A stretch of DNA of 64,000 nt from Vermamoeba vermiformis (taxonomy: Eukaryota). Shown here in pieces: positions 16,185 through 64,000 of the stretch (the stretch's first letter is position 1; every line of letters starts with the position of its first letter). Under the pieces are notes generated by a model. That model was not told the DNA's origin. It did no database searches and worked only from the letters and a program-made list of their open reading frames with translations. Both the position numbers and the translations under genes were made by a program. The stretch is from contig JBEWZL010000236.1 of the NCBI GenBank assembly GCA_045837725.1, forward strand, positions 248,001 to 312,000. Direction: 5' to 3'.

Positions 16185-18339
16185 ATGTCGTTTGGTTTTA
16201 ATTTTTTTCACCGGTCCAGATCTTTTGCAATTATTTAGAACGAGCACTAAATCCTATTGTTTGCAACAGGTCGCCATATTCTCATCGCTTTATTCATCAC
16301 CTTGGCCCTATTCATCTCATCGGGCACCTCCGACCTCGTCGTATATGCGCCGTCGGATCTTGCAGGCCAGTATACTGCCTACCCCATAATCTACCGGAAC
16401 AACTTCCGAAACGAGACAATCGACGGACAAATCGTACTGCCCAATGCCACAGATGTGACGGATAAGATAGTCTTAATGGTCTATTATCGGGCTACCTATT
16501 TAACACAGATCCGCGCACAACAGAATCGAGGTGCACGTGCCGTGATTATTAGCGCTCAACCTGGAGGTAATATATCAATATTATATATGTCACATAATTA
16601 TAGTTTTTTGAATGTAATGACGACCAATTCCAATTAAGTTTTCATGAAATCATTAATTTATTTCTTGCATTTACTATGGAATACTTTATTACGAATCAAT
16701 CGCAAGTAGAAATCTTGATAATATTAATTCAGCAAAGTTTATCGTTTCGGTCAATCGTTGTGGGATCGGGCGTTTTCTCTAACCAGTATTTTCTTGTAGT
16801 TACTCCAGGCCAAGCGAATTACGTTCTCGATGGCTCCAACGAAGACGACGTAATTTTGAGCGCATGGCACATCACTTACGCGGATTACGGCAAGCTGACT
16901 AACGTTCTGGCAAAACAACCGGATGTCGTTGTCAACGCTACTTTGAGTCCCGCAGGTAAACTTCAATTGATTCAGTTTTGCATTTACTCTTCAATTCTGC
17001 AATCTGCCTCACAGGCGCAGGCGGAAGCCTTAAATTGTATAACTTCAATTTTGCCATTTATGGATCTGCTGCGGTTGAGATGTTTCTCGGCACAATCTCG
17101 CGATTTATTCGTATCTTCATCCTGACCGAATTTGAATTTGAGCAGGAACTAACCCATGGAAGTACTGGAACGACTCCTTTATGGTCTTCGTGCAAGTCTT
17201 ATTGACTGCATTCTCGGCAGCGAATTTGGGTCTTGCTATTTATAGACTCGTTTGTCACATCCGCGCCGATGGCTGCCGCAAGCGATTGCCTCAAGCGTGC
17301 TTAGAACTGATTATAGTCGGCAATATATGTAAGTCCAATGCAATTACGACGAGAAAAATTTGTTCATAATCAAAAATGCTAATTTCTAATGTAGTCCGAT
17401 TGCTCTACGTTGCCGTGGATCCGATCTGGTCACGTGGAGTCTATCCATTGCCATTACAACACGTCTTATGGACATTCTCGCACCCTTTCAGCTTATCAGT
17501 CACGATTTTGATTACGTTCTATTGGTAAGATCTATTTTTCTGAAATGCAATCTAATTGAAAGGGCCAGTTCCGGCCTATCGGTTACGCTAAGTAATTTAT
17601 AATTGAGAGTCGCTCAATATGTTATAGCTAGTAACCGAGACCTATAATAACATTCTTACACCGATATTGTATTATAGGCACGACGTTATGCACGGCATGT
17701 CACTGAACATCAATCAAATGCTCGGTCGATTCAAGATCCCGTTCATCATTGTTATCGTCATTCTCTTCGGTATTGAGATTGGATTTGGCATTACTAGAGC
17801 TCTGATTACTGTCACTGGTGTATTAGTTACGACAATGATCACCGCCAACAGCTCGATCTACGGCGGAGTTTGCTTTGCTTTTGCGGTCTTTTTCTTCGTG
17901 ACTGCCGGAAAATTGATGCATGTGCTTAATAACAAGCAAGAAAAATCGAGGCGAGGCAAGACTCTCGCAAGAGTAAGTCAGATCTGTGGAAATTTTTGAC
18001 ATTTCCAAAATTAGAAATTTCAAATCTACGGTATATTTAATCGATTATTATCCATAGATGACGACTAGAATTATCGTTATTGGTGCGTGCTTAGTCTCCC
18101 ACGTGGTTATATTCATTCTCATCGCAAACACATCATTTTCGGTGAACCCGATCCCGTTCGGCACGATCTGGTTCTTCTCCTATTTGGTACTATGCGTTCA
18201 AGACCTATTCCAAATTCTTGCCTTAGTCCCCAAGCCCAACAAAAACTCATCGACGAACAAATCGTCTAACAAGGAGGCATTGAATACGACCCACAGCGGT
18301 ACCACACAAACAATAACGGATGCGACTACTGCCGTTTAA
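16185..18339 (+). CDS. PA-domain + 7-transmembrane receptor-like protein, paralog A
   Basis: Signal peptide; PA motif KIVL...QIRAQQNRGARAVII; seven hydrophobic segments including LITFYW; Ser/Thr-rich tail. Start inferred from a short first exon ATGTCGTTTG. Confidence 0.75.
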
Positions 18340-19068
18340 ACTGAATATGAACACGTATGCTTATATTGTAAAATAGTAAACTCATTTATAAGATTATAGA
18401 TCCGCCCGACTCAATTTGTACTGGGTTCAATTCAAGATCGGGGCACAAATAAGGATAATATAAATTGGAATCACAACGCTAGCCAATACAAATAGCGTCC
18501 TAAACAATAGTCAATGATTGTTTATTACTGTTTGCGCCCTCAATGTTCCGCTCAACGATGTTGTCTCTATTCTTTGTCGGAGCAGACTCCGATCCCTGGG
18601 ATCCCGAAAAGACGTGTGGACTGTACTCGATAGTTTTTATTGCGTTACTTAAGTCAAACAAGGAATATTTTTCGGGTAATATCAAAGTTAGCTGAAATCT
18701 GCTCTCATTTTGTTTGTTTGGTGCACAATGACAGGACCCAAAATCTTCAATCATTTCTGCCCCAGTTTTTTAGTATGTCCCATTGTATAAAGAAGAGCAA
18801 CACAGCAAGTGATATACTTTTTGTATTAAGCTGTTAAGACGGGTGTTAATAAGTGCTCATTTGGTGTGTTCGTGGATCTCAAAATAATTCAACAAACGAC
18901 GATGCGTAAGTAGTAACTCTTGTTTTTAGAATAACCTATGTACCATATAATAATGTTCATGCGTACCTTTTCGAATGCGCGCAATAGGAACATATTTTCA
19001 TGAAAGATTTATGGCCGCCAGCGGATCGTTGTGCCGCCAGGCATTCAAATCGATTACTTTATAATGAT

Positions 19069-21135
19069 ATGTGCTTGCGTATGAGTTCAATCCAATATTT
19101 CATTTTCGTTTTTGTATTGTCAAGAAACGCTATTCGTTTCGGATTTGTTGCAACTTTTATACAGAGATTGACACCGTTTTTTCAGAACTAGGTTCAAAGA
19201 AAAGCATTCTATTCTTCGTAATAGCGCTCGCTGTACACACGACGATAGCAGAGCTTATCATAAACAGCCCTGCATCCATTGAAGGCTCGTACATTGCTTA
19301 CCCCATTATTTATCGTTTCAACTTCCGCAACGAAACTATTGATGGAGAAATAGTGCTTGCAAATTCATCGGATGTTACCGATAAGATTGCCCTCGTTGAA
19401 TACTACAGGGCTGAATATCTTTCGCAGATCCGCACCCAGCAAAATCGAGGTGCTCGAGCGGTAATAATTAGCGCTCCGCCATTATGTAAGTCTAAATATA
19501 TATTTACTCTTTATTATAGTTTGAAATTAAGATTGCTGACACAGAAACTAAATAGATTCGAGATCTCGACTTTACTAATTAATCTTGTCTCACAGTTATA
19601 CCCGGCCAGGCCAATTATATCTTAGATGGATCGTCAGAGGAGGGCGTAACATTAAGCGCGTGGCATATATCATATGTAGACTATACTAAGATTGCCGAAG
19701 CCCTCACAACGTTACCCAACGAAACAGTTAGTGCGACGTTAAATCCGAGTGGTAAGATTTAAAGTTGAATTAATTAGGCACCATACTATGACCAATACCT
19801 ACGCGCCATTAATTAACGCTGTAAATCCCGCTGCTTTGAATAATTGATTGAAAATAATGACACTTTGACGACTTTCCTAATTTAGTACCTAATGAGTTTA
19901 CTTGTTCCCAAATCCTAATTAACCGAATGAATTTCTTCAGGAGAGAACCCGTGGAAGCATACTAGCGAGACATGGATGATATTTTTTCAAATCTCGTTGA
20001 CCCTCTTCACTTTGGCCAATCTTTCGCTCGCTATTTGGCGCATCGTTGAACACGTGAAAGCTGACGGCTGTCACACCAGATTGCCTCAGGCGTGCTTGGG
20101 ATTGATTATAGCCGGCAACGTCGGTAAGCTACCATATAACCAAATAGTAATTACGGGTACTAACTCGTGTTAAAAGTTCGTTTGATCTACGTTGCGGTGG
20201 ATCCGCTGTGGTCCCGAGCGATCTATCCGTTGCCATTAGAACACTTATTGTGGACTCTATCACATCCATTCAGCTTGGCAGTAACGATTTTAATCACTTT
20301 TTATTGGTACGTTCAGATGACACGTGTCAACAAGTCAAAGTGTCAAAGTATACAAAAATATCGACACGTTATTATCAGTTAATATTTTTGTAAATACTGC
20401 GGTAGCGAACTTATTCGATTATTTTAGGCACGACGTTATGCACGGCATGTCACTGAACATCAATCAAATGCTCGGTCGATTCAAGATCCCATTCATCATT
20501 GTTATCGTCATTCTCTTTGGCATTGAGATTGGATTTGGCATTACTCGTGCGTTAATTTCAGTGACTGGAGTGCCTGTAGCCATCATGATCGTCGTCAATA
20601 GCATCATCTACTCGATTGTTTGTTTGGGCTTTGCGATCTTTTTCTTCGTAACCGCTGGCAAGTTGATGAAAGTCTTGAACAAAAAGAGCCGCGGAGAAAA
20701 GAGCAGACGCGCTAAAACCCTTCGTAGAGTACGTACATCCATATAGATATTTCCTTATTTAGAATTTGATTTGTCTGAGTTGCTCGCCGAAATTTTGCGC
20801 GATGTTTTATTACTTCCTAAAAAGGAAATTATTTCTAATACCGATCTTTGCAGATGACGGTGCGAGTGGTAGTGATTGGCGCATGCCTCTTGTCCCACGT
20901 GATCATCTTCATCTTGCTATCCAACACGTCCCTGGCAGTCGTGCCAAGCTCCTCAGCTGTCATTTGGTTCTTCTCGTTTTTGATCTTGTGCGTGCAAGAT
21001 TTGTTCCAAATTCTCGCTTTGGTGCCTAAGCCGACTAAGACTTCATCCATGCGCAATACTTCGAACAGATCTACTTCGCAGAACAACGAGCACTTGAACA
21101 CTGCTACGCCAACAACGTCTACTAATGAAGTTTAA
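19069..21135 (+). CDS. PA-domain + 7-transmembrane receptor-like protein, paralog B
   Basis: Same exon layout and motifs as paralog A (AYPIIYR.NFRNETIDG, QQNRGARAVII, LPQACL.LII.GN, VQDLFQILAL). Confidence 0.75.
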
Positions 21136-25805: not shown

Positions 25806-26189
25806 CCTAGTTGATTCTTCTAAGAGTTGACTAGCATGATTGCTAGTAGATGTACGAGCTATTGCGTTGCAACACCAAGGTGGTTCTGGTTGTTGTTTCG
25901 AAATATGGTTGATCTGTTGTCTATCAATCAAAAATGCCATGAAACTGACCCGAAACGAAGAAGAATTATTTTATTTATCGTTCGGCGAGGTTCTAATTAT
26001 GGCAAAATTCAAACAGGAAGCACAACCGGACAAAGCCGTTTTCCAAAACCAGAATCTTGTGATATTTTCTTCTTCCCACGCCTAATTTCAAAGTTTAGTC
26101 GTATTAATCACCGGCAACTGGCCGCAACGCTGCTGGAAGTATTCGAAAGTACACCTTATCCAAGTACCTAATTTTCCGTAATCTCCGTC

Positions 26190-27285
26190 ATGACAACGGT
26201 CAATACGCAAGATAAAACGCAGCGTAAGGAGGCTTTAAACCATAATAATAAACGAAATTAGAAATAATTTTTCGTGTTACTAAATTCACGCAAAATTCAA
26301 TTTATGGCTCGATCAAATAGAAACACTGACAAAATTTATTTCTAGGCTGGCTTAATCTGTTGCTTGATTTTTTTGAAGCAGCCATTCACCAAATTTTGTA
26401 TTGTCGCGAAGTGTATCCGAAGCATTGAGTAGGCCTCCGAGCCCAAGGGGTCGTGTTTTCCTCAAAAGCGAAAATCAAGCGAGGTTCCGTAGCTCAGCGG
26501 CAGAGCGGATGACTGCAGATCATCAGGTCACCGGTTCAAATCCGGTCGGAACCTTTTCTTTTTACTTTTTTGTTGTTACCATCCTTGACCCAAACAGCTA
26601 TCCCAAGCAGCTTTTTACTCGAGCTCAACTTTTTGGTGTACCTATTCAACGATCCCACGCAGAGGAGCTCAGCAACTACATCCGCAACGTGGTTTCAGAT
26701 CTCAACCCGTTCTTGGCGAAGGTATTTTTGGCTGCATTACGCCTTTTACGCTCTAAGTTCTTACGTTATGCCCTAGGGCGTCATTGAAAGTGTTATGGTT
26801 GATATCATCGATGACAAAGAGAAGACAGTATCGGGTGCGTATTAAGACATGCACGGGTCTGCGACGGAATAACACATATCGACTTACCAGCCATTGCTAA
26901 CTCGTGTTCAGAACGCTTTGTATTTGAGACTCCAGTATTGTCGCCGACCGAAGCCAAGACTGATAACGAGGACTTATCGTCTTTAGTGGAAGCGTTGAAA
27001 TCAGTTCTACTGCGGATTTCGGCAGTAAATTCGCACATGGCTGCTCCCAAACGAGGTAAAATTTCATAAACTGGTGTGTTTCGCACTTACTGATCGAGAT
27101 ACCTGTTACGACGGTTAGATCTTCAATTTGCAATTAGGGTGAACACCAAAGACGAATCTATGCTCAAAAGTCTTACGTGGATTGAGTCTGAAAAAGAAAA
27201 CAAGCAGAAAACGTTTGGATCGCTTCTACCCTTGCGATCTGTCAACGAATCCGGCTTAAAAATGCAGCTTTTCGTAAACTATTGA
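26190..27285 (+). CDS. REV7: HORMA-domain protein REV7/MAD2L2
   Basis: DFFEAAIHQILYCREVYPKQLFTRAQLFGVPIQRSHAEELSNYI; ERFVFE; C-terminal LPLRSVNESGLKMQLFVNY*. Confidence 0.88.
26413..26597 (+). other. Putative U12-type (minor) GT-AG intron of REV7
   Basis: Donor GTATCCGA; branch-like TCCTTGAC at 26582-26589, close to the CAG acceptor. This splicing restores CREV-YPKQLF in frame. Confidence 0.6.
26483..26554 (+). tRNA. tRNA-Cys (GCA), intronless, inside REV7 intron 2
   Basis: Acceptor stem GGTTCCG/CGGAACC; D-arm GCTC..GAGC; anticodon arm GATGA-CTGCAGA-TCATC; T-arm ACCGG-TTCAAAT-CCGGT; discriminator T, followed by a T-run Pol III terminator. Confidence 0.96.
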
Positions 27286-27483
27286 ATCAAGTGGGAAGAA
27301 CACCAAGATTCGCGATCAAACGCGAAATCATGATTTTACTATGATGGGTGGAATATATTTAGATTGGCGGTCAAATGCCGCTCGTTGCAATTATTCTAAA
27401 GTGGTGTTGATTCACTTTAATTACGTTGTGCTCGCGCAAGCACCAATCCTGCCTTAGCGCGCATTGTATCAACAATACATTAA

Positions 27484-37421: not shown

Positions 37422-39110
37422 CTAGGATATGATCGATGCTCGAAACAGGTACGGCATGGAGTCCAAAAGCTGATCTTCATTGTACACGATTCCATTGCCA
37501 GTAAAAATAGTTACAGTTTGCAGCGTGGTTAAGGCAGTTAAATGACATCCGGTGAAAGATGGCGAAGCTAAATCAATGTGCAGCGTCGTTAGATTCATGA
37601 ACGTTGTAAATGTCAATAATCTGTCGTCGTTATCAATGTACGGCAGCATTAGATTTTCCATATTAGTTAATGCGGCTAAATCGATCCAAAATTGCTCGTT
37701 ATCTCCTGCTATCTCCATGGAGGAATTTTCAATATGCAATTGCCTTAATCTTGTCAGATCCGATAAGAAGCGTTCTTTGTAGTATACGGGGAATAATGTT
37801 AATGCCTCTAAATTCGTCAATGCTTTAATTGTTTTTAAGGCTTTGTTCGTGCTCAGGCCAAATGTGATTTGTAAGTGCGTTAATTGTGACAGTTTGGCTA
37901 GATCTGGCATGTTCTCGATTTCAATATAACCCCCGCGCTTTTTGTCAATAACCAAGTCTTTCAAATGCACCAAATTTTCAACTTCTTTATAGCTTCCGTT
38001 ATAGTCCTCTCCTCTGTCAATGTACAACTTCGTCAGATTTGAAAAAATTGCTAAATGTTGGCTTCGATTGATAGAATGCAGTATGAGAGAATTCAAGTCG
38101 GTTAAATTGCTTAGATATTTCAGGTCTATTTCTGGGCCTTGTTGTCCTATTTTTAACTGTCGAAGTTGTGTCAGATCTCCTAACAAACATAATTGCGTTG
38201 GATCTATTTGAGAGGGTCCGTCGATGATTTGAAGATATCGTAATCTTTTTAAACTCGTCAATGATTCAATATTGCTTGTTGACCAGGCCTTGCAAGGACA
38301 AGTTAGCGTTAGTTTTGTCAGCCAGACGTTATTTTCAAAGACCGGCAAAAACTTGCAACCAACCGAACAACACTCTAACGATGTTAAATATCTAAGCTGT
38401 AGTGTATTTTCGCTACTGAAGTTGTTGTATTCAAATATTTTTAAATTCGTCAATTGCTTCCAGATCTCGCTGCCAGATTCGATGTTGCCTTGAAAGCTCA
38501 TTCGTAACGCAGTCAATCTTTCAGGTCTTTGTACTAGCGCAAATGGCCATGTATTTATCGTCTCAAAATTGAATGAAAAATCTACGCTGCGTAAATTTGG
38601 CAGGTTCTGCAAGATCGAAGTGAACGAACTTTGGTGACAAGCCCATTTTGTTAACTTTGGAAACGCTTTCCATAGCTGGGGTGGAAAGCCATCTTTATTG
38701 AACGTCATCTTCTGCCTAAAACGCTGGTGTACATATCGCCAGTCTTCCATGTTGGTTAATGTTGAAAGCTGCATCCATTGATCTTCCGTTGGTGCCGGAG
38801 ATCGGTTTAAAATGAGTCCATAATATCCGACATGGTTTAATTTCTTTAGATTTGTTAGCTTTGGCAACTGAAGAATCAGATCTAGATCGCTATACTTGGC
38901 TTTGCAAATACTGAGCTCGATCGGCCACGAATATTTTGATAATCGTTCAAAAATTATTGGAATATCTTCCGATTTTGTAAAATATAATTTAAATTCGTTG
39001 TATTTGATTGTATTGAACCATTTCGTGTTTGCGAGCCTCATCTGTCGTTTTGTCTTGTTGCCCATGAAGCTGACGATTAATAGCCATAAATCTTGAGGAA
39101 GATTATCCAT
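37422..39110 (-). CDS. Intronless F-box + leucine-rich-repeat protein
   Basis: MDNLPQDLWLLIVSFM (F-box-like start) followed by many LxxLTNLxxL repeats in one uninterrupted ORF. Confidence 0.85.
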   Translation of the reverse strand: MDNLPQDLWLLIVSFMGNKTKRQMRLANTKWFNTIKYNEFKLYFTKSEDIPIIFERLSKYSWPIELSICKAKYSDLDLILQLPKLTNLKKLNHVGYYGLILNRSPAPTEDQWMQLSTLTNMEDWRYVHQRFRQKMTFNKDGFPPQLWKAFPKLTKWACHQSSFTSILQNLPNLRSVDFSFNFETINTWPFALVQRPERLTALRMSFQGNIESGSEIWKQLTNLKIFEYNNFSSENTLQLRYLTSLECCSVGCKFLPVFENNVWLTKLTLTCPCKAWSTSNIESLTSLKRLRYLQIIDGPSQIDPTQLCLLGDLTQLRQLKIGQQGPEIDLKYLSNLTDLNSLILHSINRSQHLAIFSNLTKLYIDRGEDYNGSYKEVENLVHLKDLVIDKKRGGYIEIENMPDLAKLSQLTHLQITFGLSTNKALKTIKALTNLEALTLFPVYYKERFLSDLTRLRQLHIENSSMEIAGDNEQFWIDLAALTNMENLMLPYIDNDDRLLTFTTFMNLTTLHIDLASPSFTGCHLTALTTLQTVTIFTGNGIVYNEDQLLDSMPYLFRASIIS

Positions 39111-39516
39111 TATTATACTATAAGTAGCCGTTGTTGTGTAAAAGCAGGGTGGAATGAAAAAAGAAAAAAATCGAATCTTTTTAGAGCCCAGACCGCATTG
39201 CAACACTATTGAATATTCAAGGCAATTATTTAATATTATGGATATTATATGGCATGATTTATCCGGGTATTCGTCACCTTGAACAACAAAACAAAACGCA
39301 GATTAGCCTTGCAAGCACCAAGTTGTTCTGCATAATCAAATAATCGCTTTTCAGAAAATTATTTAGTACCATATGTGACAAAATTTAAGATATTACCGAC
39401 ATTATTGAGCGAGTATCATAATAGCGATCGGATCTTAGCACTTATTGCCTTACATGGACGACAGTAATACAAAATTAATAAGTAGCATTTATTCTCGATT
39501 TCAGTTATAGGAATTA

Positions 39517-43068: not shown

Positions 43069-46000
43069 ATGGCGGACCAGAGTGCCGAAGCGGCCGCATC
43101 TAAAAAAGATCTTAACAGAAACGTAGGTTATAATTTTAATAATATTACTAACGAGTCACTTTCATATAATAGGATGCTATTCTCGATTGGGTTAATTCTA
43201 GACTGAAGGCGAGAGAGTTATCCATTGACACACTTTCAGATTTAAGAGATGGCGTTAAATTACTCCACCTTTTAGAAATTCTGTCCAGTGATGCCGTTGG
43301 AAAATTCTATCAACAGCCTAAAACTGAAGTATTTATGGTGGAAAATTGCAGCATCGCGTTGAACTTCTGTAAACAAAAAGGGATTAACAAAATTCGTGTT
43401 GGAGCGCAAGGTAATTTTATATTGACCATTATTTATTGCGTATATATTACCGATAATAATATGCCATCGATTATTTGCATTGGAAATAATCCTTGATCCC
43501 AATTTTAAATTTCTCTTTACAGAGATCGTTGACAACAAAAAGAACGCAATTTCTAGCGTCTTATGGAACGTTATGCAATTCTACCGTGATACTGCAGTAA
43601 GTACTATTGATTGAATCACAAGATTCGCTAGAAACAATAATTGTATTATTATTGGCTTCGGATGCGCAACATAATTTCGAGTTTTCATCAACCGAAAAAA
43701 TTAATAATATTATTATTAAGGCCGATTACGACTTAAAAAGACTCGAAGCCGAAGAGCCTGTCACGCCACGTGGCCAATCGGACCATAAACTCGAAGCACA
43801 TCCGCCGCAAACAGAAGTTAATGCAGAGACTTCTGAAAAACGTAATTCTACCGAGTTACCGACCGTTCCTAAACTTCAGTTAGATACCTCTGGCGATGGT
43901 ACAAAAGAAGAAAGGCGACCACGCAGATCTTCCTCGAAGAACGCAGATGGCGCGGATGGAGCCAAGTCACCGCGCGATAAGCAGAAACGAGAAAAGAGAC
44001 ATAAGGACAAGAGCTCTAAGACACCTAGAGACCGCAGACCTTCAGAATCTGAAGAGAACGTGAAGTCTACATCGGTGCCCAGCGTTGAGTTGAGTGCTAC
44101 CAAATCGGGCAATAATAACAGTTTGGAGCCACCTAAGGCTGACAACGGCTCAACGACACCGGAGATGACACCGAGAACAGCGGAAGAGTACTCGTTATTA
44201 ACACAGATTTACTCGGCAGTTGCACCAAGTAAGGCCTCAATGATGGGCAACAAACGCGCGACCATCGCGACAAGTTCGCCTGAAAAAACAAACTCGAAGA
44301 GTGATTTGAGAGCTGAGCACGCTAGCAGCACATCAGCTGGCCACTCTGAGAAGAATTTGACCGAATCAGGACCTCAATCTATATTACGTAAGTAGCATAT
44401 TAGCTCGAAAGTTTGGTGTTCGCACGGGATAGATCTGACCGGATCTAATTATGATTCATTTAGCTTCACCACGAGGACCTAAGCCCGCTATTCCTCCTCG
44501 TCCTCAAAGCCTTCACCGCGAGAATTCAGTTCCTGTTCGCCCGCCAAGACCAGATAAAGAAGCTGGCGCCGCCAAGACACAGCCCGAACCACCTCCAAAA
44601 GTTATCAAGCGCGTTGGTTCACAGCCCGAATTGAATTCGCCTTCGAGCCAAGCTGGTGGCATGGAGTCATCGGATTCATCTTCAGTTCCTCAAACAGCAA
44701 GGTAAAAATTCAAATTTTTATTTCCAAAAAAGGCAAGTCTAATGTTTTGGCTTAGATTGCACCGTGAACCATCAAAAGTTAAAATTCCCAAGATCTTCCA
44801 ACAAGCTGAAAATCTTGTCGATGAGAACGCCAAATTAAGAAAAGAAGTTGAACGATTGAGGATCCAAAACGAACAGTTGTTACGCGAACTCGAATTACGC
44901 GAACCTACTTCAGCACGTGATCGATCGGACAGCGAGAGCAACAGCAGCAATAACGCAGTGCCGTCTGGTGCTTCGAGCGACAAATTGGACACTAATCGTG
45001 CTCATCATGGCAGCGGCGACCGTAGCAGCGTGACAGTAAGTCAAACTCAAAAAATTAATTAACCAATGAATAGACACCAAATCACGTGACTTTTAATACT
45101 AATTTATTCCATTATTTTAGTTCCGTTCAATTGTCAGCTTGGTGAATCCATTCGCTGGCTTGAAAAAGAAGAAAGAATTGACGCCCAACGAGCAAGCAGA
45201 AGAAATTGCACGATTGAACGAGCTCGTCAAAACCAAGGACAAGGAGATTGCACGATTGACGAAGGAGCTGGAGGGCTTTAAGAAAGAGCACAACAAGAAC
45301 TCGCGAAGGTCCTTGAGCGGCAACGCCCCCGTGTTGAGTGAATTGAAAGAAGAAAAAGGGTACGTCTTCCAAGCGTCTTTAGGCACGTGCAAATTGATCT
45401 CTAACAACCCGTTCATGAATAGAAAGAACAAGTTGTCTTTGCGCAAGATTTTCACGGGTGGATCACGTGACAAGAAGCGTGATGGCCCCGCGACACTGAG
45501 CGAAGAGTTTATTATGGAAGAAGAAGAGTATTTGACTGCTTTGACCGTCATTCAAGCCTTTATACGACGCCGTAATGCCATGGAAAAGAAGAGCTCGCTT
45601 TGTACGTCTAGATCTCACACAAAAAAAAACTATACGAGCGTTGTTCTAACTTGATGTTTTGCAGCCAATTCACGTCCCAAGCGCGAAGATTTGTACGATG
45701 TCTCAGCGGTGACTACCATCCAAGCCGCGATCAGAAGATACCGCGCCATGGGCTTCTTGCAGAAACTTTGTACGTAGCGGTCTAGACCGACACAAAATCA
45801 CGTGGTATGACACGTGACTAACGAGTTTTGTGTGTGTAGTGTACTACAAGAAGAGACACAGACGAGTCACCAAGGTCCAATCACAAATCAAGATGCACAT
45901 GGCACGCAACAACTTCAGAAAGTTGCAGCGACGAAAGTACATTGCCGCTGAAATCACTAACACTGAAAGAACTTACGTCGAGGGCCTGCGCAGCGTCGTT

Positions 46001-49640: not shown

Positions 49641-50247
49641 AAATTTTAAGTAGCGTATTTCCCTTATGCATTATGGGAAATAGTAATAATTACTATGTAA
49701 TTACTCGGGCATTGCTCGCTGCTTGTTCCGGGTTGGGGTTGGGTTTAAGCTTTTTTTACTGATGAATCAGTGTTAGGATCCGATCGACGAACAAAATTAA
49801 ATCATTTCTAAAGAGGTCGCAACAGCCCTATCGACTATATTACTATACCTTTATTTTCTTTATGTCTAAATTATCTTGGTGAAGATCCAATAACGGCTAC
49901 AAAATCTTTCGGTAGTACAAAAAAGGAAATTACGGTTCCCTGATCTTACAATGAACTTTCATGAACTTCAGTGGTTAAAATTGACATCTTAATCTAATTG
50001 AATCCGATACCTAGCTTTTCTATGTCGGAAGGGCCAAGAACAATTTTTCTTCGGCAGATGTAGTGTTTAGTTCTAGCGAAACGGTCCTCACCTTCAATTT
50101 CGTGCCTTTGATTGGTGCAAAATTAGGGCGCATATGAGTATTGTTTAAAAGACAAGCCGCTCTAAAAATAGGATTTTTTTGTCACGTAAAACATCGACTT
50201 TTTTTCAGTAAACACCGGATCTCTTGCTCCAGTTCACCACAACAGAA

Positions 50248-53200
50248 ATGTTAGCAAGAAGAAAAAAGATCGGACTTAAGACTAGCACGACTAAGAAGCC
50301 TAGTGTTATAGATCCACGAGGCTTTGAATTGTTCGTGAATTTGCCTTCAGAGATCAAGCTGGCTATTTTTGATTACGTGCCATTTGCGCAATGGGTAGTC
50401 TGTTTATCGAGTGTATGCAAGGAATGGAGGTAATTTTCTGGCAGAAAAAAAACGAAAAATTACGAATTAATTTTGCTCCTCCTTGATCTTGCTTTATTCT
50501 CACAATTTAAATATGAATCGAATTTAAACTATTATAATATCTATTTAACTAATATAATATAATTTTAGAAAGCTGTGCCTTCAGTCCCAAACGCCAAAGA
50601 TCTTGCAGGCAGAAAAATTCACTCCCTACGGCTTAATTACTGCTACAGCTCTCTATGAAATTGTGAAAAATTACCAAGTAGTTGGGCTTGATATTAAGGG
50701 CTTGTCTCCTTCATTTAGAGAGAAAGTGTCTTGGACGCTCATCTTGACTGCGTCAAAACAATTGTCGTGGGTCAATATGGTGCGCCTAATTAGAGAAATG
50801 CCAAGCAAGAATGTGAACGTTACTTGCACAGCTACGTCTGTAGTATTTAGAAGTAAGGAAATATTTTTTTTGTTGCCTGAGATCTCGATCTAATTTTTTT
50901 ATTATCTCCTAGATTACGGAATGATGAATAATTGGCTCCACCTATTTCCAAATGTAAGAGATGTCCGATTACATTCCGGTTTTCTTGCCGCTGGCTCATT
51001 CACGTTCCAACCACATCCATTCATCAAAATTATGCGATTCAACGTCAAGAACTTTGATCAAGGCCTATTACTTCTATCTTCGATCAAGACTTACGCTCCT
51101 AATTTAGAAGTAAGAAAATAATTCCTTATATTTGTTATTCATTGAATTTATTTTTTTACCTGACCTTAGGAGCTTCATATGTACGTCTATGAACGATCGG
51201 ATACGGATCAGTATACTCCACGACAACGCTTGCAACAAGTTTATCAACCGTTAGAAGCAAAGGCTGAAGAATTGGGCATTAAAATATATTGCAGAAATTT
51301 ATTTTTGTTGGTGAACGATCCGGATGTGTTCATCGAGTCGTTTAACCAGCAAAACTTGCCCTACAGTTATTATAGATCTTCTGCGCCTGTCAATAGAGTA
51401 CGTCCGACACATAACGGATTTTAGTCCTTATTAATTTTAACTTAATTTTTAGACCCTTCTTGGCGAGGCAGTTCGTCAGTCTTCGTTGCCCGTCGTAGAA
51501 TTTTTATTGGAAAATGAAATAACGACGCTTGAAAAAGAATTCGGGCCGTATCCGGACGCGGATTTATTCTACCGATGCCCTTCAGTTCGTTTGCGAGGTC
51601 ATTATCCTTTTTTGGTCGATCCGCAGGTTGGTCAAAGAAAATACAACGGCAATGCTTAATTATCTCCTTGCAAAGGGATATGATATTAACAAAAAGGTAT
51701 GATATAATATAATAATATAATAATATTAATTTAAATAAGAAATTAATAATCGACGTTTCTAGATCGACGGAAAAACTTTCTTTGAAGTTGAAGATCTGAG
51801 CCACCCGACTATAATGCACTTAGTCTCGCATTCAAACGTTGATTGGACTGTAAAAGCATCGGATAATGCTACAAGTACGTTTTATTTTACTATTTAAGGA
51901 AATTTCTAATCGGATCCAATTAGTCATCCATAATATTTTTCAAATGGCCGCGTTAGAAATGTTCCGCTATGCAGCCCAAAAAATTCCGCACGATGTCATG
52001 CAAGAATTATTGAATATGCAAGATGAGGGAGGAAACACGCCGTTGCATTTGATTTACAATTGTCCCGAAGAAATTTTCGACGAAATTGCCAAGTACGAGC
52101 TGAATTGGGATATTAAGAACCACGCGTACGTAAACAATATATAGTTAGTAATAGCAATATTATTATTTTATTAATACTTAATCAGAGGTGCAACGCCGTT
52201 GCTTTCTTTAGTTGAAACTCTTCGCTACGATAATTTAGCCACGCATTTCAGACGTAAGATTCATTTATCAATTTTATTTCCTTTTTTGGAATATTGCGAA
52301 AGCTTAATTTTTTTGCAAACTCCAGGAATGGTTCCGTTAGTGCCGTCGATTCAAAAGGGAGTTGTTTCAACAGTCTTTGCAAAACATCGATCTGCAAATG
52401 TGTTATTGCCCGAAATAGAATTATTTGCATCACGTGGCGCGGATTTGAACGAAGTTGTTGACGAGACCCCGGCTGTCATGTTGCTGACTTGTTTCTCGGA
52501 AGAACTCATTCGTGTAAGTCCCGAAGTAATTAATACTCATTTGCACGATCGTATTTCCTTATTTGGAAGTCAATTTATCGTTTGCGAAGTTCGATTATTG
52601 AACTATTTTTTGATGTTACGGATGTGTCTAACTAATTTTTGTTTAGGAATTGGTGAAGCACGGCGTTAATATCCACGTGGTCGACAAGAACAACCAAACT
52701 CTATTGTTCAATTTATTAACGCAGAATTTGGTCGTCAATCGATTGGAGATTTTAGAACTGCTCGTGAAAGAATTCAAGTTTAACATCAATCACCTGTCAA
52801 AAGAGCATTTGACACCTTTGACATTTGCACTGAAAAACAAGCATAACGATGAAACTATTGCAAAGTTATTGGAACTCGGCGCGAACGTAAGACAAAAAAC
52901 TTCCTTATTTGGAAAAGTCTTTTTTAACACTTTCCTAATTTAGCCAAATCTTTGCGGCTTCAATTTTCTTCCGCCGCTCGGTCACGTGTCTTCAAATTTA
53001 TACAACGCAGCTATGGCCCTGCCAATTATCACGTGTCTGTTGAAAGCGGGGGCAGATCCAAACATGAAAGTCTACAACGAAGACAAGACTATAGTAGTAC
53101 TGCCCTTAGTCAAGCTGTTGAACTCGTTTGACTCATTGCCCGTGTTGCATTTACTGCTCGAATATAGTAAGTCACATTCAAACTATTTTTGACAGGTGTG

Positions 53201-57215: not shown

Positions 57216-58756
57216 ATGGAATACTTTGACCTGTTTGGCTTGCCCGCGGAGATTGTGCAGGAAATCTTTCAAAAGCTGACCATTTATGAATCCATACAGT
57301 ATGTAATACTACAGATTTATTTATTAAAGTAATATCGATAATAATATCCATTAAATTTACGTGTTCTTTTATTAATTAGGTCAGGTCATTTGATGATCTC
57401 CAAAAATTGGTCTTCCACGCTATGGAAAGCGCAATCAGATCTCGATATCGATAGCAAATACTACAAGCTAGATAGAATTTATAATTTGGTACTTCCTGGA
57501 AATATCAAACGGCTCAAAGCGAGTGCCGCCAAAGTCATTGAATTTGCGGACCAGATTCTCTCGTTCCATAATCTACAGAAAATAACGACAGAAAAATTGG
57601 ATAGCAATGTGTGCAATATCATCAACAAATTAACATCGTTATATGACCTATTGGCAACGAACAATTCGTTAACAAAAGACGATCTCGTGTCCTTTGCAAA
57701 TAGCTTTACTCGTCTGACAGCTGTAAATATACTGAACATTACTAATGTTGACGGTAAGTATGCGCATCATATACAATCATGATTAAGTCTGATCTGACCA
57801 TTATTATTAAAAGACTGGCCTAACATTTCGAATCTGGTCAATCTTCGCTTTGCTTCTTTTCCTAGAAATTCATTTACTCCTGCCTTCTACTCGCGGCTCT
57901 TAGCTCATACAAATCTGGCTCATTTAAACGTCGGATTTTGTCGGATCACCAAAACAGGCATGGATTCAATTTGCCAACTGACGCAGCTCAAGCAAATATC
58001 GTTACTAAAATTACCGAACCAAGCTGACCCAGCCGATGCGTGGCTGCAATTCTCAAAATTGACTAGTTTGACTGCACTTGCCTGCCACATCCCTGTAGAT
58101 GCAGCTCACCAGGTCAGCAAATTTGTAAAACTCAAGTCATTGAATCTTCATCCCGAAGATTATCAAGCACCCTTTGACATGAACTTGTATTCGACCTTAA
58201 CTGCACTCGAAGAAGTTGATCTTGGAACCTCTTTCACGAAATTTCCCACCACGTGGACAAATCTGAAGAGATTTAAGGCTATGCATGCACGCATTGATAG
58301 CAACATGAATTTTGACACTTTGACATGTTTGAGATTATTCGTAGCGGATTTGGACCCGGGCGCATGTCACAACTTGTCAAAATTGACGAACCTAGTCGAG
58401 TTGCGACTATTAGACCAAACTTATTATAAAAATTATACAGGTATAGTAACAGTATTATTTAGATCTTTTCAAACAAAGCTGATAGGAATTTTTTTCACGT
58501 AGATATATATCACCTGTCAAAGTGTCAAAATCTACGTTCGCTGTGTGTAACAGCGGACAGCACTTGTGCCGATATCATCAGCAAATTATCGACATTAACA
58601 TGGCTCGAAATATTCTGTCCGGGTGGCTCTTGGCCTGAAGAAGATATTTTCAAATTGACTGTGCTAAGTAACCTCGTACGAGTCAACTTAGTCATGAATT
58701 CTAAGCCCGATGGCATTGAAAAAATGTTGACCACGCGTTCTACGGGCAAAAAATAA
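57216..58756 (+). CDS. F-box + leucine-rich-repeat protein (3 introns)
   Basis: LFGLPAEIVQEIFQKL...MMISKNW, followed by LRR-type LxxLTxLxxL repeats. Confidence 0.8.
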
Positions 58757-61360: not shown

Positions 61361-61538
61361 ATAAATAGTATTTACGTTAATGTCGCAACATTGGGGTGTT
61401 GGCGCCAATTGTAACGTTGCAATAATAAGTCTCGTACGCAACAAAACGGAAAATTTGGTTATGTTTCGAAAACAAATGAAATGTTAACCAACATTTGTTT
61501 TGTGAATCTCATGTTGCACTGATTTTTTGTGGATCGAG

Positions 61539-64000
61539 ATGCAACAAGTGCAACAGAGATTTTTTTCTAAAGAAGCGCCTGTAAAAAAAAGAACATGCCG
61601 CAAGAGTGCAGAGAAGAAGGAACATAATGAATACATCGATCCACGAGGCTTTGAATATTTTGACCAATTACCAGAGGAAATTAAGCTTGCAATATTCGAC
61701 TATTTTCCGTTCCATGATTGGTTATTGCAATTATCGCCAGTTTGCGCTAGTTGGAGGTAAGGAATTAATTACAATTTCCAAGTATTAATTTTTTTTAATT
61801 ATTTTTCGCAGATCTCTTGCTTATTCGTTTAATTAATTATCAAATAATTGTAGAAAATTAGTTACGCAATGTAACCGACAAAAGATCTTGGACCAGAATG
61901 TTTTCCTCTTGCTCGGCTATACTTTTATTCCGCATGCAGCCATGTTGGATATTGTTAAAAGTTATCAAATTTATGGCCTCAATCTTGAGTACGCTAATTC
62001 AGCAAAGCTGAGCGAACTGTTGGCCGCATCCAAGCAGCTCAATTGGGTCTCTCTGACGGACTTTTGGAAAGAGTGTTTACCTCCGAAGAATATTTTACCC
62101 AATACCGTATCATCTGTTGCTTTTAAATGTAAGTCTTATTGGCAATCACTGTCACATCTGATCTGACATCCGTACGGAATTATAATTTAATTTTATTAGC
62201 GTGGACGGAATATCAAGCCCTCAAAGAATTATTTCCAAATATTAAAGAGCTGAAAGTGGCGCGAGCAGGCGTATTGAAAAGCCTCGAACACCTTTGCCAT
62301 CCGAACCTCAGAATTTTGCACACCGTGGTTCAATCTCAAGGCGAAGCAATTGACTTAATTACTCGTATTAGATCGGTGGCACCAAATATAGAGGTAATAA
62401 TATATTATGAGCGAATGTCGTTATTCAAATGATACTTTATGATATCTTTTACCGGGATCTGTCAATCGTTTAATTTCTATATATACGATAATATTAATTT
62501 TGTTCGTAATATTGAGAGTCATATTAACGGCGAATATATTTTAGACTTTTGTGCATTGTTAATTGTTTGTGTTTTTTTTTTTTTTTTTAATTACTAAGAT
62601 TTGTTTCGCTCAGACCTTGCATTTACAACGCCAAGAGGGGGGAAGGTTCCAAAGAAAGCGCAAAGAAGGTACCCTTCCGACAATGCCTTTAGAGCAAGAC
62701 GAACAGTTGGAAAAACTAGCCGCCGAGATGAACATCAAACTTTATTGCCGCAACTTGTACGAGTTGATTCCCTACCCGAATTTGTTCATCGAATCGTTCG
62801 TGAAACAAGGGCTGCCTTACTCTTATTATATGAAGGTGCAGGATAAGAAGGTACGTCTGTTATAATCAAATGCAACGCAAAGCAATCTAGATCTAGATCT
62901 CGATCCAAATATGGATCCATAATTCGTAGTTTGTCGTACTAATAGTTACGTATTGTTTTAATAGACCTTGTTGAAAGAGGCGTGTCACAATTTGGCTTTA
63001 CCAATTGTGAAATTTTTGCTTGAAAACGGTCACACGACGATAGACCGCGAATACAAAGTCAATCCACCAAATATCTTCAATCGGGTCCTTGAACCTGCCA
63101 GCGGAGCAAAGAAGAAATCTTCCTCAGTGAACTCATTGTTCTCGTATGGTTGGCAGTTGGACGACAAATCCGAAGCAATGATTGACTACTTGTTGGCGAA
63201 GGGCTTTGACGTTAATAGATCGGTACGTTAAATGCAAAAATAACGAAATTTCGCTCATACGATTGAGAATTGACCAAAATTTTTCTACAATAATTTAACG
63301 TGGTCATTAATAATTATCGCTATATTTGTTAGGTCAATGGCGAAACCATATTTGGAAATGTTGAACAGGACGTCCTAGTGTACGTTTTACAACGCACTCA
63401 AGTTGATTACAAACGTAAAATTGATAGCGAAGGCAATACAGGTAAAATCTTTCTTCAGGCAATCAAACGCCATTAACGGGTTTATTTCCAAATATAGTAA
63501 TCCACTGCTTGATGCGTGATAGTTTGCTTCTCGGTTTGGAAATTGCGAAGAAACAATTGTCCAAGTCGGAATTAATCGAGGTATTTTCCATCAAAAACGA
63601 CGACGGAGACACTCCGCTGCTTATGGCAGGATTCGAGCAAGAAATTATTGAGTTTTTGATCGATTTGGATCTTGGATCTGTGTGGGACATACCTAACGCT
63701 TCGTAAGCGACCATATATTTTAAATGAATAAACTAACGTCGGTCAATTAACTTTTTTCCAGAAATGAAACGCCCCTTGTAAAATTCGTTAGTGAATGGAG
63801 AGGACAAGTGAACGCATCATTAATGAACTTAAACAGTAAGTAGCTAATCATATTAAATCATTAATAGACTTTTTTCATGAAAATCAATAGTGACACTTTT
63901 CATAAATCAGTTTGAACCGGGAGCAAATTAATCTTTGCAACAATTTTTTTTAAATGTAAAAGCAATGATGATGTGATAATTACGTGCATAATGTTCACAA
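61539..64000 (+). CDS. F-box + ankyrin-repeat protein, paralog 2 (3' end runs off the window)
   Basis: IDPRGFEYFDQLPEEIKLAIFDY...VCASWR; IKLYCRNL; FIESF..Q.LPYSYY, shared with paralog 1; ankyrin GDTPLL. Confidence 0.85.

Follow-up and report, generated by a model that had tools for sequence, protein, structure and literature searches.

A tRNA-Cys gene in an intron of REV7 whose splice signals resemble the U12 type

The window studied here, by which we mean the whole stretch of 64 kb that was analysed, is eukaryotic DNA with a G+C content of 39.4%. It contains a REV7/MAD2B gene on the plus strand, modelled as six exons arranged around a tRNA-Cys gene, with a joined product of 197 amino acids. 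The features of the locus are presented in Table 1. The product is identical in 173 of its 197 residues to protein P0002, which is named MAD2B in one source and carries PF02301, and in 170 of them to P0003. When compared with solved chains, P0003 is closer to MAD2B/REV7 (5e-22), of the HORMA class, than to MAD2A (1.5e-12), so that the host gene is REV7. Among 1.84 billion representative proteins, P0003 (82%) is the only REV7 with more than 40% identity over most of the length. The next homologues after its own cluster in that set are 34–39% identical, and those with a name among the next ten are holozoan: two choanoflagellates, a sponge, a snail and two vertebrates. As judged from these sequence comparisons, the lineage behind the REV7 of the window is poorly sampled. 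Atlas look-ups gave only HORMA and F-box clusters of mixed phyla. An early fungus, an amoebozoan and a bdelloid rotifer were considered as sources; the rotifer is unlikely, given that several annotated proteomes of bdelloids are public and the scan showed no REV7 above 39% identity outside the cluster of P0003.

Table 1. Position of the REV7 exons, of the second intron and of the elements found inside it
Feature	Position in the window	Strand	Evidence or remarks
REV7/MAD2B exon 1	26190..26223	+	ATG at 26190; spliced X3 and X4 contigs
REV7 exon 2	26346..26412	+	ends ..CGC GAA GT, phase 2, within a Val codon
REV7 intron 2, GT-AG, 185 nt	26413..26597	+	skipped exactly in one X3 contig, one X4 contig and one X23 read
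Donor GTATCCGAAG / GTATCCGAAGCA, copy 1 of the direct repeat	26413..26424	+	6/8 to RTATCCTT
In-frame stop TGA upon retention	26426..26428	+	translation ends ..REVYPKH*
tRNA-Cys(GCA)	26483..26554	+	Rfam RF00005 and ARAGORN; sense, inside REV7 intron 2
A-box-like TAGCTCAGCGG	26490-26500	+	read from the sequence
B-box-like GGTTCAAATCC	26533-26543	+	read from the sequence
Three T-runs, Pol III terminator-like trailer	26554-26557 TTTT, 26559-26563 TTTTT, 26566-26571 TTTTTT	+	sequence
Branch motif TCCTTGAC	26582..26589	+	8/8 to U12 TCCTTRAC; contains TTGAC (major-type YTRAY)
REV7 exon 3	26598..26721	+	begins with CTATCCCAAGCA, copy 2 of the direct repeat; first base C
REV7 exon 4	26777..26834	+	model and spliced contigs
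REV7 exon 5	26912..27055	+	model and spliced contigs
REV7 exon 6	27119..27285	+	stop TGA included; model and spliced contigs

Two REV7 proteins of relatives, P0001 and P0004, come from different sources and have 148 amino acids each. Both start at the same place in the middle of exon 3 (VQRSH..), with introns 3–5 removed. Such a start could reflect a short isoform, a relative in which the tRNA intron is retained, or an error of gene prediction. Genomic REV7 of relatives was found in none of the 591 stretches matched in a protein-guided scan of metagenome contigs. A pattern search for DNA of relatives, with the 3' half of the tRNA joined to the start of exon 3, also gave no result.

The Pfam content of the window comprises F-box/LRR, BTB, RCC1, DUF4246, S1/P1 nuclease, phosphoesterase and Cupin_8. 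At least two F-box/LRR genes are detected by Pfam (37422-39299 in the minus strand, with weaker matches at 57798-58499) and two further genes were judged by eye from starts that resemble an F-box; the other gene spans are 50212-51421, 57345-58753 and 61506-62429, all of them in the plus strand. Genes with BTB, RCC1-BTB and ankyrin repeats are also present within the 64 kb; a homologue search with the neighbouring RCC1-BTB gene found none. Positions 16251-18336 and 19068-21132 (+) correspond to adjacent paralogous genes with several exons, which resemble multi-pass membrane proteins and have no Pfam family above threshold.

Intron 2 is a true spliceosomal GT-AG intron, which is precisely removed. 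We aligned four public runs (X3, X4, X21 and X23) on positions 26150-27330. A contig of 629 nt from X3 and another of 877 nt from X4 are both fully spliced and 95–99% alike. Positions 26413-26597, with GT..AG ends, are absent from both of them, with no ambiguous letters at the junction. The same contigs also splice the four other introns of REV7 at the positions of the model; the junction of intron 1 is found at the same position with one letter substituted. The junction 26412/26598, which the earlier note had set as the RNA check, is thus seen in the two contigs, and it is also present in one raw read of X23. The raw RNA reads of X21 (nine) and X23 (four) are few and all of them are less than 95% alike; they come from a diverged relative and are uninformative on retention and on strand. 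Translation of the unspliced form agrees with the early stop that had been predicted upon retention. The folding energy of the intron (-45.9 kcal/mol) is that of its shuffles (-46.1 +/- 3.5), i.e. it has no special structure.

The tRNA found inside this intron is complete. ARAGORN places a tRNA-Cys (gca) at 26482-26555 in the plus strand, the single tRNA in 64 kb, while Rfam RF00005 matches with its full model and 70.1 bits (gathering score 29, E 2.9e-13); the Rfam run over the whole window gave no match besides this one. The cloverleaf is present, with an acceptor stem of 7 bp (GGTTCCG/CGGAACC), the anticodon GCA at 26515-26517 and a discriminator T at 26554. The U73 discriminator is an identity element of cysteine tRNA. 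The elements given in Table 1 as A-box-like and B-box-like are those which we take, from the box consensus sequences, to be the internal promoter. The T-runs at 26554-26571 are the sole T-rich tract in the 3' part of the intron. A complete sense tRNA-Cys with a T-run terminator had been described from the sequence, and both programs as well as the three T-runs bear this out; it had also been said to fill most of the intron, which is not the case, as it occupies only 72 of the 185 nt (39%). Since it has its own A and B boxes and a terminator, the gene should be autonomous and transcribed by Pol III.

Two further observations concern the surroundings of the tRNA. About two reads of X21, less than 95% alike over the tRNA (26470-26589), continue for some distance on both sides of it, after which they no longer resemble the window. 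These reads, too few to interpret, might derive from a second tRNA-Cys locus of the relative whose flanks are similar, as a copied insert would predict. A perfect inverted repeat of 10 nt is also found between exon 2 (26362-26371, GCTTGATTTT) and the positions just before the tRNA (26471-26480, AAAATCAAGC). It would loop out the donor; we estimate that about 0.08 such pairs are expected by chance per 400 nt.

The splice signals have been compared with those of other introns of the window. The comparison set has 27 introns: five from REV7, supported by RNA, eight from a serine-palmitoyltransferase-like gene, delimited by eye, and 14 from a CH-IQ-RhoGEF gene, obtained by spliced alignment to P0005, a protein of a relative. 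The donors GTAAGT, GTACGT or GTATGT are present in 13 of the 26 other introns. None of these 26 has C at +5, and three have C at +6. G at +5 is missing in eight of the 27 introns; seven of the eight have G at -1, whereas REV7 intron 2 has T. It is the only intron of the set with G at neither position. We have also scored the donors with a local major-type matrix (leave-one-out, positions -3 to +8, GT left out). Intron 2 has a score of -5.57 bits, while the other 26 range from -0.46 to 7.83 with a median of 2.65. The 6898 decoy GT sites have a mean of -5.02 bits and 53% of them equal or exceed the score of intron 2: by the major-type consensus its donor cannot be told from a random GT. The earlier remark that a donor with C at +5 and +6 is unlike the others is right, and these figures allow a stronger statement.

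The 3' end is less peculiar. The nearest YTRAY is TTGAC, with its A at 10 nt from the exon, and the local range is 8–27 nt. The share of pyrimidines at positions -17 to -3 is 0.60, and eight of the 27 introns have a lower value, although the share of T at the 3' end (0.20) is the lowest among the 27. The branch motif near the 3' end had been correctly noticed. A poor pyrimidine tract does not distinguish this intron from its neighbours.

When the intron is compared with the U12 consensus, its first six nucleotides (GTATCC in GTATCCGA, +1 to +6) match RTATCCTT and the full consensus is not reached. The deviation at +7/+8 had been pointed out before; we confirm it and find that +9 differs too, the donor having GAA from +7 to +9 instead of TTT, which speaks against the U12 type. 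These three positions of a U12 donor pair with U11 and U6atac. The branch motif is complete, with its A at 26588, 10 nt from exon 3, followed by CAG at 26595-26597. Exon 2 ends in AGT, so that positions -2/-1 are GT and not AG. GTATCC is found at 11 of the 6903 GT sites of the window, and TCCTTRAC with its A at 9–16 nt before AG at two of the 6772 AG sites, one of which is that of intron 2. For a GT..AG pair taken at random, the joint expectation of both elements is about 5e-7.

None of the 26 other introns is U12-like, no pair of RTATCCTT and branch motif exists in the 64 kb, and GTATCCTT does not occur in the window. The sole exact ATATCCTT (12855, +) follows the serine-palmitoyltransferase-like gene, in its 3' flank; it has no U12 branch motif downstream and is probably due to chance. 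Relaxed scans for donor and branch gave 94 and 154 pairs, which we consider as noise; only intron 2 coincides with a mapped intron. Intron 2 of the RhoGEF gene (43411-43522, +) has an ordinary donor, AAG/GTAATT, yet it contains ATCCTTGAT, which agrees with the U12 branch motif in 7/8 positions; the branch A of its TTGAT is 27 nt before the exon. Since an ordinary intron carries such a sequence, a branch-like motif is not exclusive to REV7 intron 2.

Published work gives a frame for these signals. According to PMC10853781, AG at -2/-1 is never found in GT-AG introns validated as U12-type; where AG is present, U12-type motifs can be read by the major spliceosome. In PMC11347168, those 'minor-like' introns which respond to inhibition of the minor spliceosome have no G at -1, a conserved CC in the branch motif and a short distance from the branch to the 3' end. 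REV7 intron 2 has all three features. Among the variant U12 donors listed for Trichinella (PMC2846911), T is retained at most of the +7/+8 positions. The minor spliceosome is missing in many lineages (PMC11347168) and its introns and snRNAs are patchy in fungi and amoebozoans (PMC11347168; PMC10639083). The former source also mentions that C. elegans splices introns classed as minor, with no minor snRNAs found there. The gain of minor introns is considered very rare (PMC10639083). Our literature search, which did not extend to supplementary tables of minor-intron genes, found no report pairing MAD2L2 with 'minor intron'.

A new feature which we have found in this analysis is a repeat of 12 nt at the borders of intron 2. 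Its first 12 nt, GTATCCGAAGCA, match the first 12 nt of exon 3, CTATCCCAAGCA (26598-26609), in 10 positions and in the same register. Across the window, a match of this quality has a frequency of 1.1e-4 per position when the spacing is the same; the value is 1.2e-4 when spacings of 40–399 are taken. Both mismatches correspond to third codon positions of exon 3, i.e. synonymous sites, and for this reason the retained intron still reads VYPK. The 70 nt which precede the tRNA have 51% G+C, as compared with 22–48% in the other 26 introns. One joint read of X23 fits GTATCC for six letters; it weakly suggests that the relative has a GTG Val codon, which would make the copies of the repeat more alike. 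We found no terminal inverted repeats at intron 2 and no second copy of the insert in the window.

These features can be explained by the insertion of about 173 nt, the tRNA with a leader of 58 nt and a trailer of 43 nt, into ..GAA GTN TAT CCN AAG CAG.. with a target-site duplication of 12 nt. GT would have come from the left copy of the repeat and AG from the end of the inserted fragment. In that case the donor is a duplicate of the Val-Tyr-Pro-Lys-Gln codons, GTATCC being that of Val-Tyr-Pro, and probably not an old U12 signal; if the insertion is true, it was not inherited as such. On these sequence features we consider the chances of an origin by insertion of a tRNA fragment as evenly balanced. 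Such an insert would need to be spliced immediately with a poor major-type donor, which is easier to understand if a minor spliceosome reads it. Creation of U12 introns by transposon insertion with target-site duplication has been proposed in Physarum (10.1101/2020.10.12.336362). A U12-type intron newly gained in this way, in which the donor would derive from codons and the insert would have brought a perfect U12 branch, is an unlikely event in our estimate.

Two ways of splicing have to be weighed. The signals of intron 2 appear closer to the U12 type than to those of its neighbours, and it plausibly belongs with the 'minor-like' introns. Removal by the minor (U11/U12) spliceosome, if the organism has one, would be the single most likely mechanism, with a probability slightly below one half. 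The U12-type label of the earlier note is plausible from the GTATCC core and the 8/8 branch motif, but it is weakened by the mismatch at +7 to +9 and by the lack of a second U12-like intron. The intron might instead be of the major type (U2) with a very weak donor, its likeness to U12 being a by-product and the tRNA an ordinary passenger. GTATCC would then be simply the duplicated Val-Tyr-Pro codons and TTGAC an ordinary YTRAY which happens to follow TCC, while the T-rich Pol III terminator may act as a pyrimidine tract. Major-type splicing has to account for a donor which scores about as a random GT, in the sole intron of 27 with G at neither -1 nor +5, and for a perfect branch motif at the right distance, which is expected at about three in 10,000 AG sites. 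Nevertheless several facts agree with it. The donor matches the codons of exon 3 in 10/12 positions and the duplication explains GTATCC equally well. TTGAY branches are present in introns 2, 8, 10 and 13 of the RhoGEF set (GEF_2, GEF_8, GEF_10 and GEF_13), and ATCCTTGAT is found in an ordinary intron. The ends are GT-AG, the branch distance of 10 nt is inside the local range, and local donors are loose, as just half of them have one of the three common sequences. The sources already mentioned also report that U12-type motifs are readable by the major spliceosome (PMC10853781) and that C. elegans, in which no minor snRNAs were found, splices introns of the minor class (PMC11347168). We regard splicing by the major spliceosome as only slightly less likely than by the minor one; mixed or other cases take the remainder.

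With respect to origin, the intron may be old, the tRNA may have entered it later and the repeat may be due to chance. In nematodes tRNA genes move quickly in and out of introns (PMC3342880), and the lack of a second copy of the insert in the window fits this alternative. The repeat was noticed post hoc: with about 200 implicit tests its chance becomes about 0.02, an estimate which includes a generous correction. Against an old intron, the repeat is in exact register with both mismatches synonymous, the G+C content before the tRNA exceeds that of all the other introns, and the Val GTG codon suggested by the X23 read would raise the likeness of the repeats. We consider that an old intron falls only just short of an even chance. 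A different proposal, made in the earlier note, concerns the consequences of the arrangement: slow splicing would compete with cleavage of the tRNA by RNase P/Z or with Pol III occupancy, and thus tie the output of REV7 to tRNA processing. The tRNA is indeed in sense within the pre-mRNA and intron retention yields an early stop; tRNA-like molecules are reportedly excised from a Pol II intron in Arabidopsis GUT15, and P0001 and P0004 start in the middle of exon 3. However, this coupling finds no support: the X3 and X4 assemblies contain only fully spliced forms, and in Caenorhabditis nested tRNA genes are common (264 of 608) and turn over fast with no effect on the host (PMC3342880). We judge the coupling as very improbable.

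Comparison with known systems shows which aspects are shared. With U12 and 'minor-like' introns (PMC11347168; PMC10853781), REV7 intron 2 has in common the GT-AG ends, the GTATCC core, the absence of AG at -2/-1 and of G as first base of the following exon, and an exact TCCTTRAC near the 3' end. It differs by GAA instead of TTT at +7 to +9 and by a donor which seems derived from coding sequence. The nested tRNAs of C. elegans (PMC3342880) are also complete, with an internal promoter and a host which is normally spliced, but here the host intron has only 185 nt and atypical splice signals, and in our reading the intron signals of the window are not those of a nematode. In introners, and in the transposon model for the U12 introns of Physarum (10.1101/2020.10.12.336362), a border repeat in register also allows splicing to restore the frame; the REV7 intron differs in having no terminal inverted repeats, no second copy in the window and a tRNA gene as cargo.

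Intron gain by repair of double-strand breaks, with short flanking repeats, has reportedly been modelled in Daphnia. In Arabidopsis GUT15, tRNA-like RNAs are said to be released from the intron of a Pol II transcript: a tRNA-shaped element is likewise found in sense inside an intron, whereas the tRNA of REV7 has its own Pol III boxes and terminator and should therefore be independent of the host transcript. The arrangement by itself is ordinary, as both its components, a nested tRNA gene and a minor-like intron, have precedents.

If a minor spliceosome is present in this organism, REV7 intron 2 indicates the extent to which a perfect branch motif lets a U12 donor deviate from the consensus over +7 to +9. 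If the repeat did arise as a target-site duplication, an intron was born here from a tRNA insert, with a donor provided by codons, and the locus has kept the record of it. A newly gained U12-type intron, if true, would be a rare documented birth of a minor intron outside Physarum, with a mechanism which is still legible. An origin by insertion would then be relevant to the ways in which introns, perhaps also those of the minor type, are gained.
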